Shown: one piece after another, positions 15,001 to 18,000 of the stretch
Numbering within the stretch: the first letter of the stretch is position 1
Layout of the letters: each line of letters begins with the position of its first letter
Source of the DNA: a virus
Lineage: Duplodnaviria; Heunggongvirae; Uroviricota; Caudoviricetes
DNA length: 41,177 nucleotides
Virus record (IMG/VR): IMGVR_UViG_2531839369_000042
Reading direction: 5' to 3' (one strand)
Made by a program: the position numbers

Positions 15001-18000
15001 TTACCCGCTATGCTAAGGAGCGCGAACAGAATCGTATCCCTGTTGAAATTGCTGCGGGCCAGCAAATAACCCTCAGTCCCGGCGAGCACAGCGAACTTAT
15101 CCGTGCCATAATAGAGGACTTCGCCCCACGTTTTGCTCCGGGTAGCGTGCTGGTCTATGCTGGCGACACTGGCGAAAAGTGGGGCTACTTCGACGCTCCA
15201 CTGCTGGCCGGGCTAGGTGTTGATGTGGATTCACACGGTAAAATGCCAGATGTGGTGCTACATTTTACTGCGAAAAACTGGCTGCTACTGGTTGAGTCTG
15301 TCACCAGTCATGGACCGGTTGATGGGAAGCGGCATGCTGAGCTTGCCAGGCTGTTTGCCGGATCAACAGCCGGACTTGTCTATGTGACCGCTTTTCCAAA
15401 TCGCTCCATCATGGGGCGATATCTTGGTGAAATCGCATGGGAAACAGAGGTATGGGTGGCTGATGCACCTTCTCATCTTATTCACTTCAACGGAGTGCGA
15501 TTTCTTGGCCCCTACTCTACTGAATGAGAACAGGACCAGATAAATAGCCCGGCCCATGCGCCGGGTTTTTCTTTGCATATCCCCTCCTGTTATCTGTCCC
15601 CTTAAAAAATAAATCACTTTAAAAATCAGTTAAGTAATAATTTCTCGTCCTTAAAAAAGCACCGACGGTATTTACATGAAAATAACCGCAAGTTATATTT
15701 ATTTCAAGCCAGAAACATCGCGCCCTTACACAGGGCTACATAAATCAGTCGTACGGCGCGACTTAACCCGCCGCAAAATGCTCTTTAACAATCTGGAGCT
15801 TTACAGCGTCAATGACCTGTTTAGACCCCTACACGTAAACGTGCTGTATCATCGGGTGCGATCCGGTCGATGAGAGAGTATCCCCGCGCGAGAGCGAGAA
15901 CGGCGTGAGAACGGGCAACACTGGCAGGAAGTTGGCGCTGACCAATACAGGGAATGTTTTGGGGTGTGGTGAAGGGTTCATGGACGGGAATATGTCGCAC
16001 GTAAAGCGGCGAGGCCCGAGGGACTATTGCTGAAGATAAGTAGGCCGAATCGGGTCGAAATGGGTCTCCCACCTGCCACATCGCCAAAGCATTTCCGAGA
16101 AAGGACGGTATTGACTGCGTGTGATGCCGGGGCTATATTGGGCGAACACCTTATAAAACGGGTGTCGGGATTCTCACCCCGCTGACAATCGAGGCGATAC
16201 AGACGCGCCAGCGTCTTTTTTTGTATCGACATACACGCACATCTTATCAATGGTGGGCTGTATGGGGCCGACTTCGGTCGGGCTGGTTCCCTTGATTGCC
16301 AGTTGTGAGAACCCTGTACAGTCCACCGCCAGCGAGCTTCTCACCTCCTGCGGTGGTTATTAATCACCAATCAAGGAGGCTGCCATTATGGCTACTATCC
16401 CAGTCCTTTCTCAACCTGAAATCACCATTTCCAATGGCCGCGCTGTTACTACGTCCTTTGCCGTTGCCGAATATTTTTGCAAGCGACACGATAACGTATT
16501 ACGTGCCATTGCAAATATTGAATGCTCAGAGAAATTTAACGCCCTCAATTTTGAGGACGTTACCTACACCGACGCCAAAGGCGAACAACGCCCAATGTAC
16601 CAAATCACCAAAAACGGATTCGTCTTCCTGGTGATGGGCTTCACTGGTAAAAAAGCAGCTGCATTCAAGGAAGCCTATATTGCTGAATTCGATCGCATGG
16701 AAAAACAGCTATGGGAACAGAAACAACTGGCTCTGTCTTCTCCTGCGATGAATATCAATTTTCCTTTATCGTGGTTTTCAGAGCATCACCCCTACGCCAC
16801 GATGAACTATGTTGATCGCAAGGTTATCAGCCTTGATGCTTCCGTACTCTTCGACATGCCAAGCCCAACTATGCGCATCCTCAACGAGCTACACAGCAAG
16901 GGCTATAACGTTGACGCCGCTGTCGCCGAATTTAACGCCTTCAAGCATCTGACGGAAGAAATGCGCCGTAAATTGCTGGATATTTCCCGCACATCGGAAA
17001 AATCTTCCCGCTTTGGTTTCAACGTTAATCTTTAATTAAATCTCTCCCCGATTATATATCGGGGATTAAATTAAATATCTGGATTAATTAACCGGAGGAT
17101 TTGTCATGCTCAAACCTCACTACGGAACCATATTAGTTTCTCGCAAGGACGTTAAACCCGGCACAGCAATTCTTTACAACGGGCGTTATTACATGGCGTC
17201 AGCTAACGTTAATAATGCACTTTACGCACATTCACTGATTGAAAAAATTCGCATTATTTCAGATGCAATAGAAGTTTACCTGAACCATAAAGGCCAGCCG
17301 TTAATCTCACCAGCCTGAAAGGAAATATCATGCTCAATCAAAAAATTAATATCAATGTAAAAAGCGTCGTAACGCCAGCAGAAACTATAATGGGTGAAGT
17401 TTTTATGGATGATAAAATCATCGCCTATTTTTTTGTCCTGCCTGATGAGGCTATTTCTGTTATTGATACGGAAGGCAATGTTATGTTTATCGCAGAAAAT
17501 CCAGAAGACATCGCATTACAGGCCGCTGCATATTTCTTCGCTAAGGAGCAGGAGGAAGAATGTGACTGCCCTGTCTGTCAGCTTTCCCGACAAATTAATT
17601 TAATGCATTAACCGAAATCAGGAGTTCCGCCATGAACGCATACCTCACCTGTGACCGAATAGAGGAGCGTCGCTGGGTTAATCAGCACATTCAGGATGAA
17701 AAGGATAAATGGATTGACGATCGGGCGCAGGAGCTTATCAGCATGTTCCCCGATAAACCATTGCTTATGAGCAGCCTTTTTTTACCCAAAGAAGCCCAGC
17801 TGGCACTTACTGGCGATAAAGCGGAAGAGGCTTACAACGATTATATCTCAGCGATCGCCTATGCACGGGCGGAAGAAGAATGGGAGAGGAAATTCTCCCC
17901 CTGTCCTTTCTGATTTTCAGGACCAATAAAAATGTTCGATATCGTTGAATTTGTTAAACAGCAGGAGCGCTTTTTCTGCGAAGCATTAACTGAACCGACG

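Follow-up and report, generated by a model that had tools for sequence, protein, structure and literature searches.

Two kinds of early antitermination device are known in lambdoid phages, namely, N acting with nut sites, and the put RNAs. In the nut sites of lambda and P22, a boxA is followed by a conserved small hairpin, with a lambda-type N-leader hairpin downstream. Such sites have their boxB hairpin right after boxA, work with a cognate N of the same phage that bears an Arg-rich motif, and recur as nutR in the pR operon. The put elements of HK022 and HK639 are cis-acting folded RNAs at the start of the pL transcript of N-less phages, about 70 nt in length, with two stem-loops and no known boxA, and they modify RNA polymerase without a protein, by way of its beta' zinc-binding domain. 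A boxA also works where no phage protein is needed, early in the long non-coding transcripts of rrn, suhB and clustered regularly interspaced short palindromic repeat (CRISPR) loci; an rrn-type boxA of this kind binds NusB/NusE, recruits SuhB and confers resistance to Rho. Most like the locus described here is the putative nutL of phi80, whose GenBank record (NC_021190) marks two short motifs, 'nutL boxA' and 'nutL core', ahead of a 98-amino-acid (aa) 'N'. We analyzed a viral sequence of 41,177 nt (IMG/VR record IMGVR_UViG_2531839369_000042; the window hereafter), which is a lambdoid Shiga toxin 2a (Stx2a) prophage of the Eru1/Oslovirus type with its late genes on the minus strand. Its region 15572-16387 is the untranslated leader, about 680 nt long, of the early-left (pL) operon, and is laid out in the order leftward operator (OL) and pL, two small hairpins, boxA, a 137-nt RNA, an N-leader hairpin, and a module of isrK promoter, isrK-like RNA, C4-like RNA and Rha-family antirepressor (Table 1). 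The first translated gene of the operon begins at 16388, with a 37-aa open reading frame (ORF) at 16250 before that gene. The boxA and the 137-nt RNA are the subject of this report.

A boxA joined to a three-way-junction RNA

The sequence-only reading of the window had taken the boxA for an rrn-type motif, and this holds: at all 13 of 13 positions TGCTCTTTAACAA agrees with the rrn leader boxA of E. coli (consensus GCUCUUUAACAA). It occurs once only in the window, and an exact match appeared in none of 100 dinucleotide shuffles; when up to two mismatches were allowed, one further site was found (17951-17963, minus strand, within recT), which is the chance level. For comparison, a 47-nt rrn leader segment containing boxA is present in all 5426 of the 5426 complete E. 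coli genomes, with a median of 7 copies per genome, about 100 nt 5' of 16S rRNA. The boxA of the window lies 212 nt 3' of the immunity-terminator hairpin, whose 8-bp stem (15546-15567, 6 of the pairs being G-C) is followed by TTTCTTTG, and about 73 nt past the predicted pL start, hence early in a long untranslated transcript if that start is correct. The predicted pL has the form TTTACA-17-TATATT, with the -35 element at 15671-15676 and the -10 element at 15694-15699, and a motif common to the predicted OL and OR (12258, in the cI-cro intergenic region), CACCGACGGTATTTACATGAAAATA, overlaps the -35 element. We place the transcription start at about 15706, in agreement with which contigs with another immunity region (L109 and L115) align with the window only from AAGCCAGAAACATCG (15706) on. 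The two small hairpins between this start and boxA are GCCCU-UACAC-AGGGC (15722-15736) and AGUCG-UACGGCG-CGACU (15747-15763). An ORF of 65 aa (15676-15873) that spans boxA was rejected as a gene, since it has no family match and its start precedes the predicted transcription start.

That the boxA lies where nutL is expected is borne out by phi80, whose record places 'nutL boxA' at the homologous site. Window positions 15779-16095 are 95.3% identical to phi80; this alignment opens precisely with the 'nutL boxA' feature and stops some 36 nt short of the start codon of 'N', with the same order of elements (boxA, hairpin A or 'core', long leader hairpin) at the same place after pL. The two loci differ in that the phi80 boxA reads TGCTTTTTAACAA whereas that of the window has the perfect rrn form, and in what comes next, which in phi80 is the 'N', of unknown family, and in the window the isrK-C4-antirepressor module. 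Moreover, the phi80 record marks two short motifs where we find a folded RNA of 137 nt.

This RNA begins about 12 nt after boxA in the window and 12-16 nt after it in relatives. Its stacked helices P1 to P3 close a junction that bears hairpins A, B and C, a structure obtained by RNAalifold and by pair counts on an alignment of 33 diverse copies. Standard pairs occupy 96.5% of the cells, as opposed to 90.5 +/- 0.4 in shuffles (0 of 500 shuffles reached the observed value); pairs changed on both sides number 14, as opposed to 6.3 +/- 1.1 in shuffles; and the covariation score is 0.214, as opposed to 0.015-0.056 when the partners are slid by one to three columns, in which case 29-42% of the cells are paired. 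The fold is specific to the plus strand, because G-U pairs are frequent. Hairpin A (CACG-UAAA-CGUG), 40 nt from boxA and inside the three-way junction, is conserved and covarying; the purine-rich single-stranded joints are conserved as well, and the sequence of hairpin C is wholly different in divergent members. With a covariance model, the copy in the window obtains 204 bits and is the sole one, the next best match in the window reaching 10 bits, and no second (nutR-like) copy was found in the window by pattern, by nhmmer, or by the covariance model with filters off. An Rfam scan of 15779-15945 at E<=10 returned noise only and no family match.

The RNA is widespread. A 22-nt pattern from it (window 15853-15874) matches at least 120 IMG/VR contigs as well as nine species representatives from Enterobacter, Kluyvera and Escherichia, and the boxA motif is likewise kept in at least 120 viral contigs. 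By BLAST, the RNA is present in 224 of the 5426 complete E. coli genomes, including the phi80 lysogens DH5alpha and DH10B, where it is never annotated, and Edwardsiella phage Edno5 carries it too. Exactly one copy was found by nhmmer in each of 126 loci, and boxA and RNA always occur together. As a leader module of the phi80 type, the cassette of boxA and RNA runs through the whole family; it is present once per phage, always at pL, and goes with no particular downstream protein.

The RNA is not a put element by homology. It could not be aligned to the putL-like RNA of HK639, and the covariance model gave no match in the whole HK639 genome or in a 10-kb HK022 early region, which presumably holds putL and putR (unannotated); nor did it match the mEp234 or 933W-like loci. 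Unlike put, the RNA is 137 nt long, folds as a three-way junction and is always linked to a boxA. On the other hand, N-less HK639 shares the first 50 nt or so of the pL leader with phi80 and then has an annotated 'putL-like antiterminator RNA' where phi80 has boxA and the RNA; since the putL-like RNA fills the same slot after a shared 5' leader, the two RNAs are positional alternatives. Compared with the nut sites of lambda and P22, the window lacks N and nutR, and its hairpin A, a stem of 4 bp capped by a tetraloop, is distant from boxA and embedded in a larger fold. The rrn and CRISPR leaders lack a large folded RNA, whereas the boxA of the window is fused to one; the window leader also differs from rrn-type boxA systems in having an intrinsic terminator in its path. 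The sequence-only reading had offered, as one of two options, early antitermination without N, by a put-like RNA or by host Nus factors acting at boxA alone. A conserved folded RNA does follow boxA, but it is not homologous to put, and we infer its function by analogy. We tentatively propose, at a probability somewhat short of even, that boxA and the 137-nt RNA might take their place beside N/nut and put as a third means of early antitermination among lambdoid phages, namely, a nascent RNA that uses boxA-recruited host Nus factors without a phage protein and would thereby protect pL transcription from termination. Its carriers include phi80, the lysogens among widely used laboratory strains, and the outbreak-associated Stx2a phages (O104:H4 and O103:H25).

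The missing N and the slot downstream of the N-leader hairpin

Searches by tblastn with the phi80 'N', the mEp234/933W-type N and lambda N found nothing in the window (all E > 0.3), and the same queries recovered their own genes in control loci. The absence of N suspected from the sequence is therefore confirmed, and it has already been published, as Llarena et al. (2021; PMC8044961) described Eru1 phages without homologues of lambda N, CII and CIII. It was also correctly read that 15874-16295 contains no plus-strand ORF of at least 60 aa, the largest having 42, 52 and 37 aa. A homologue in an unlisted frame did not emerge either: nothing credible came from tblastn with these three queries or from scanning all six frames for Arg-rich windows. 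The ORF at 31650-32027 was considered as N and rejected; it has a basic stretch, but it corresponds to phrog_1888, to which no function is assigned there.

The Arg-rich ORF of 12 codons that had been noticed just past boxA does exist (ATG at 15870, stop at 15906-15908), and the suggestion was that N had been deleted leaving this start behind. This does not agree with phi80, where the start of 'N' corresponds to a point about 36 nt past window position 16095, not to 15870. The codon at 15870 is GTG in all relatives; in the Eru1 lineage a change of G to A at this position is paired with a change of C to U at 15852, which is the sole double change in the otherwise invariant helix of hairpin B, and in Edno5-type sequences a 1-nt indel breaks the 12-codon frame with the pairing kept. 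As the ATG arose by a compensatory change and the frame is broken in relatives, the ORF is a by-product of RNA evolution rather than a remnant of N. The same data bear on the idea of a hidden small N, in which this peptide or another short ORF would be the antiterminator. Although the peptide is Arg-rich and lies just past boxA, its ATG is lineage-specific, its frame is disrupted in relatives that preserve the RNA pairing, it has no recognizable ribosome-binding site because the ATG sits in helix B, and no frame yields an N homologue, so that we regard a hidden N as extremely improbable.

What phi80 and the window do share beyond the RNA is the long hairpin at 15950-16096, a homologue of the hairpin in the N leaders of lambda, phi80 and the mEp234/933W type. 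It folds at -63.5 kcal/mol (z = -3.9) and is 95% identical to that of phi80, the homology to phi80 stopping at the 3' foot of the hairpin; positions 15958-16089 are 91.7% identical to the untranslated N leader of the mEp234/933W type, from nutL boxB to the start of N. In lambda, the N leader takes the same fold, with a similar lower stem (UUUGGGGUGUG / CAC..CCAAAG), and there this hairpin is an RNase III site that serves N translation control. In phages of the TL-2011c/P13374 type, 106 nt of the hairpin interior are missing, and the lower stem is kept as a short hairpin. As judged by these alignments, the nutL region and the N leader of the phage are both of the phi80 type, and its predicted isrK promoter begins where the ribosome-binding site and first gene would be.

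To see which proteins accompany the RNA, we counted downstream families in 71 non-redundant loci over 4 kb, as clustering of the first ORFs is confounded by spurious ORFs within the structured leader. Kil (49 of 71 loci), a Gam-like protein (47 of 71) and a 52-aa protein of unknown function (38 of 71) are frequent, each more than 1 kb downstream. The first-gene slot holds diverse unrelated genes, mostly for acidic proteins, that share one leader tail and ribosome-binding site (..CAGAGGGTAAGGnnATG), and the slot 3' of the N-leader hairpin is a hot spot for unrelated small acidic cargo genes. The phi80 'N' (phi80 locus 3353-3649) belongs to phrog_25091, of unknown function, has no Arg-rich motif and is found in only 8 of 135 loci; it looks like a cargo-type gene rather than an N homologue.

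These observations allow the alternative of a relic nut site to be weighed, in which the leader would be the nutL of an N-type protein that other phages encode, left non-functional when the gene was lost on insertion of the isrK-C4-antirepressor module. The phi80 record indeed calls the site a putative nutL and the next gene 'N', the N-leader hairpin has been retained along with the site and has lost its interior in the TL-2011c type, an N-like protein is encoded downstream in Edno5-type phages, and a second, nutR-like site, which would speak for a working system, was not found. However, no common first gene or N family runs through the 71 loci although the RNA is nearly invariant, the phi80 'N' shows neither an N-family match nor an Arg-rich motif, and the boxA of Eru1 is the perfect consensus whereas that of phi80 is TGCTTTTTAACAA. 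Among 19 Eru1-type loci, the element is intact in every one while the flanks vary: the variable sites number 0 of 13 in boxA, 1 of 137 in the RNA, 3 of 73 in 15706-15778, and 14 of 147 in the adjoining hairpin, which has an internal deletion in addition. Furthermore, the Eru1 lineage carries the compensatory C-G to U-A change in hairpin B. On balance we consider a relic unlikely.

The site might also be served in trans, by an N-type protein from a co-resident lambdoid prophage. Genomes of E. coli strains that make Shiga toxin (STEC) carry many lambdoid prophages, and the site resembles an annotated nutL. Yet no protein family in the analyzed loci matches the RNA, and Eru1 phages are produced in lysogens of E. 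coli C600 (Llarena et al. 2021; PMC8044961), where no such helper is expected, which makes supply in trans a very improbable explanation.

The antirepressor module and a proposed path of polymerase through the leader

About half of the region that had appeared empty in the sequence-only reading consists of known RNA genes, isrK-like and C4-like, which that reading overlooked. The isrK-like small RNA (sRNA) ends in an intrinsic terminator (stem 16201-16216 followed by T7), which lies between pL and the first protein gene. The C4 loop GUGAGAA (16305-16311) is complementary both to UUCUCAC in the isrK-like RNA (16170-16176) and to UUCUCAC at 16338-16344, just 5' of the ribosome-binding site of the antirepressor and within a hairpin (16323-16356), and this triplet covaries, being UUCUCAC/GUGAGAA/UUCUCAC here, UUCGAAC/GUUCGAA/UUCGAAC in a second copy of the module, and UUGCUAC/GUAGCAA/UUGCUAC in P13374. 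A terminator in the leader, a short upstream ORF, a downstream antirepressor and covarying triplets are common to the window, the isrK-orf45-anrP locus of Gifsy-1, c4-icd-ant of P1/P7 and seqA-CI-seqC of P4. In Gifsy-1, the antirepressor, which triggers induction, is under the control of read-through at a terminator and of pairing by the sRNA (PMC4825925). The window differs from these systems in that its module stands directly behind the pL leader, in the N slot of other lambdoid phages, and in that there is a second copy of different specificity. The genes 3' of the Rha antirepressor are kil, gam-like, recT and exo.

The second module lies at 29384-30332 and consists of a promoter, an isrK-like RNA (29420-29493), a C4-like RNA (29519-29602) and an ORF6N-domain antirepressor (29655-30332). 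Since its recognition triplet differs, the prophage has two antirepressors under antisense control that are addressed independently of each other. One more antirepressor-like ORF, the third (27633-28310; phrog_1726), has a terminator-like hairpin (27505-27528) and a promoter-like site (27556-27583) on its 5' side, and no isrK or C4 match was found over 27505-28310. The antirepressor of P13374 has the short upstream ORF joined to it in frame, TAA having changed to CAA. ORF26 of P13374 (HE664024), named 'antitermination', was not accepted as such: the domain evidence is of the ORF6N antirepressor type, and its C-terminal half is common to the Rha protein of the window (the P13374 coordinates concerned are 7658-8332 and 6617-7402).

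If the cassette works as we propose, it would act in cis on the transcribing RNA polymerase. The boxA would recruit NusB/NusE together with the other members of the host Nus complex, as at rrn operons and CRISPR arrays, and the adjoining folded RNA would stabilize or extend the Nus modification. Polymerases from pL would then resist Rho across the leader of about 680 nt and read through the isrK terminator into ant-kil-gam-recT-exo, and those from the isrK promoter, being unmodified, would mostly terminate to give the sRNA that, together with C4, may keep the antirepressor off in the lysogen. The pR operon would need no such device because it has no consensus intrinsic terminator between pR and Q: our scan of the minus strand from pR (around 12229) found no strong one before Q, and the first is a tR'-like hairpin (6933-6914) just past Q. 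The rightward path to Q and stx2, in which there is no boxA, thus looks independent of N through lack of terminators.

Another division of labor is conceivable, in which boxA alone does the anti-Rho work and the folded RNA has another task: it might serve in processing or stability, be set free as an sRNA by cleavage at the adjoining hairpin, or sense a host factor or ligand and so tune early-left expression. It draws on the finding that boxA alone blocks Rho termination on non-coding CRISPR transcripts and thus suffices against Rho on these arrays (PMC7665894). An RNase III-type hairpin next to the RNA could release a 5' fragment of about 240 nt, and the conserved purine-rich joints suggest tertiary contacts or a binding partner. 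On the other hand, no expression platform (terminator/anti-terminator) consistently adjoins P1, the RNA matches no riboswitch or sRNA family in Rfam, and boxA and the RNA keep constant company at a fixed spacing. To boxA acting alone we accordingly attach a low probability.

Several points weigh against antitermination by boxA and the RNA without N. The function is argued from position and analogy. Complexes of the rrn type are effective mainly against Rho and not against intrinsic terminators, and for this reason the folded RNA would have to supply a further activity if polymerases are to pass the isrK terminator. Intrinsic terminators were counted downstream of the element in 50 of 76 loci, the same as in the antisense control, in a crude scan that missed the annotated tL1A of phi80 and is thus uninformative. 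The lambda or 933W-type N is absent by tblastn from 133 of 135 loci, but N proteins are small and diverse, so homologues could be missed. Edno5 gp49 (locus 3187-3507; annotated as hypothetical) has an Arg-rich stretch (NSRQRRAMRYRA) and is N-like (phrog_271, E = 2e-12), and in Edno5-type phages this protein is the second gene, alongside the boxA-linked RNA; the element may thus cooperate with N in some phages. The near-invariance of the RNA within Eru1 is weak evidence of selection, the sequences being recent relatives, and the compensatory change could have arisen before the first gene was lost. Taking both sides together, we put the chance that early antitermination here is N-independent and would be carried out by boxA, host Nus factors and the folded RNA at about even.

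The prophage around the leader and what the cassette may mean

Region 15572-16387 is 100% identical to the corresponding regions of PA2, VT2phi_272, ArgO145 and Stx2a_F765, and 97.5% identical to those of TL-2011c, P13374 and phi191 with one internal deletion. Operators and some early regulators were not found in PA2-type phages by Yin et al. (2015; PMC4587872). IS629 copies have also been reported in PA2-type phages (PMC4587872), with which an insertion of the IS3 family in the window agrees; it lies at 19796-21009, just 3' of exo in the early-left operon, and has two overlapping ORFs and an ALIL frameshift pseudoknot (20077-20193). A methylase/endonuclease pair of the BsuBI/PstI type fills the slot from cI to the immunity terminator, which is the site of rexAB in lambda, and would be co-transcribed with the repressor in the lysogen. 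The sRNAs AsxR and STnc100 lie 3' of stx2B, and the interval from Q to stx2A holds three tRNA genes (4621-4880 and 6289-6537), which is the usual layout of Stx2a phages.

Table 1. Positions of the leader elements and of neighboring features in the window
Feature	Position	Strand	Basis or remark
Stx2B-sized ORF	4955-5224		
Stx2A-sized ORF	5236-6195		
Q gene	6979-7461		
Cro	12001-12240	-	
Lambda-type CI	12300-13013	+	
BsuBI-type methylase and endonuclease	13108-15527		PHROG matches
Immunity terminator (intrinsic-terminator-like hairpin and T tract closing the cI/methylase/endonuclease unit)	15546-15577	+	
Predicted OL operator and pL promoter	15660-15699	+	predicted from sequence
5' leader with two small hairpins	15706-15778	+	sequence reading
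boxA TGCTCTTTAACAA	15779-15791	+	exact match to E. coli rrn leader boxA
Conserved three-way-junction RNA, 137 nt	15804-15940	+	covariation, RNAalifold
P1 helix	15804-15812/15932-15940		
P2 helix	15817-15821/15923-15927		
P3 helix	15827-15829/15913-15915		
Hairpin A (phi80 'nutL core', CACGTAAACGTG)	15832-15843		
Hairpin B	15849-15873		
Hairpin C	15884-15903		
12-codon ORF MREYPRARARTA	15870-15908	+	inside hairpin B, linker and hairpin C; judged non-coding
N-leader hairpin	15950-16096	+	fold and alignment
Promoter-like site TTGACT-17-TATATT for isrK-like RNA	16111-16139	+	kept in relatives
isrK-like sRNA (P4 seqA equivalent)	16146-16221	+	Rfam RF01394, 58.7 bits (gathering score 50)
C4-like antisense RNA (P1/P7 c4, P4 CI class)	16246-16333	+	Rfam RF01695, 77.1 bits (gathering score 45)
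37-aa ORF at the position of Gifsy-1 orf45/P1 icd	16250-16363	+	weak Phage_ASH match
Rha-family regulator/antirepressor, first protein gene of the early-left operon	16388-17035	+	Pfam Phage_pRha 2e-32, PHROG 995/1760

The absence of N, the annotation of the phi80 boxA as a putative nutL, and the isrK and C4 families are already known. As far as we have checked, it is new that this boxA belongs to a widespread, covariation-supported RNA of 137 nt outside Rfam, that the cassette is independent of any N-type gene, and that it directly adjoins, in the Eru1 Stx phages, an antirepressor under sRNA control. Full-text searches returned no prior description of the RNA or of N-independent boxA use in Stx phages; an earlier account in the phi80 genome paper (Rotman 2012) or in King et al. 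2011 (HK639) is possible.

Should the RNA be inert, the finding would shrink to the absence of N that is already published, and Edno5 is a useful test case for cooperation between N and the RNA. The Oslovirus/Eru1 Stx phages include the ones carried by the strains of the O104:H4 (2011) and O103:H25 (2006) outbreaks, and Eru1-type Stx2a phages are reported to form unusually unstable lysogens; a conserved RNA cassette instead of an N system, together with an sRNA-controlled antirepressor, offers testable handles on their induction. If the cassette is an N-independent antiterminator with boxA, it would be a new mechanism in a textbook system, and would explain early-left expression in many lambdoid phages without a recognizable N.

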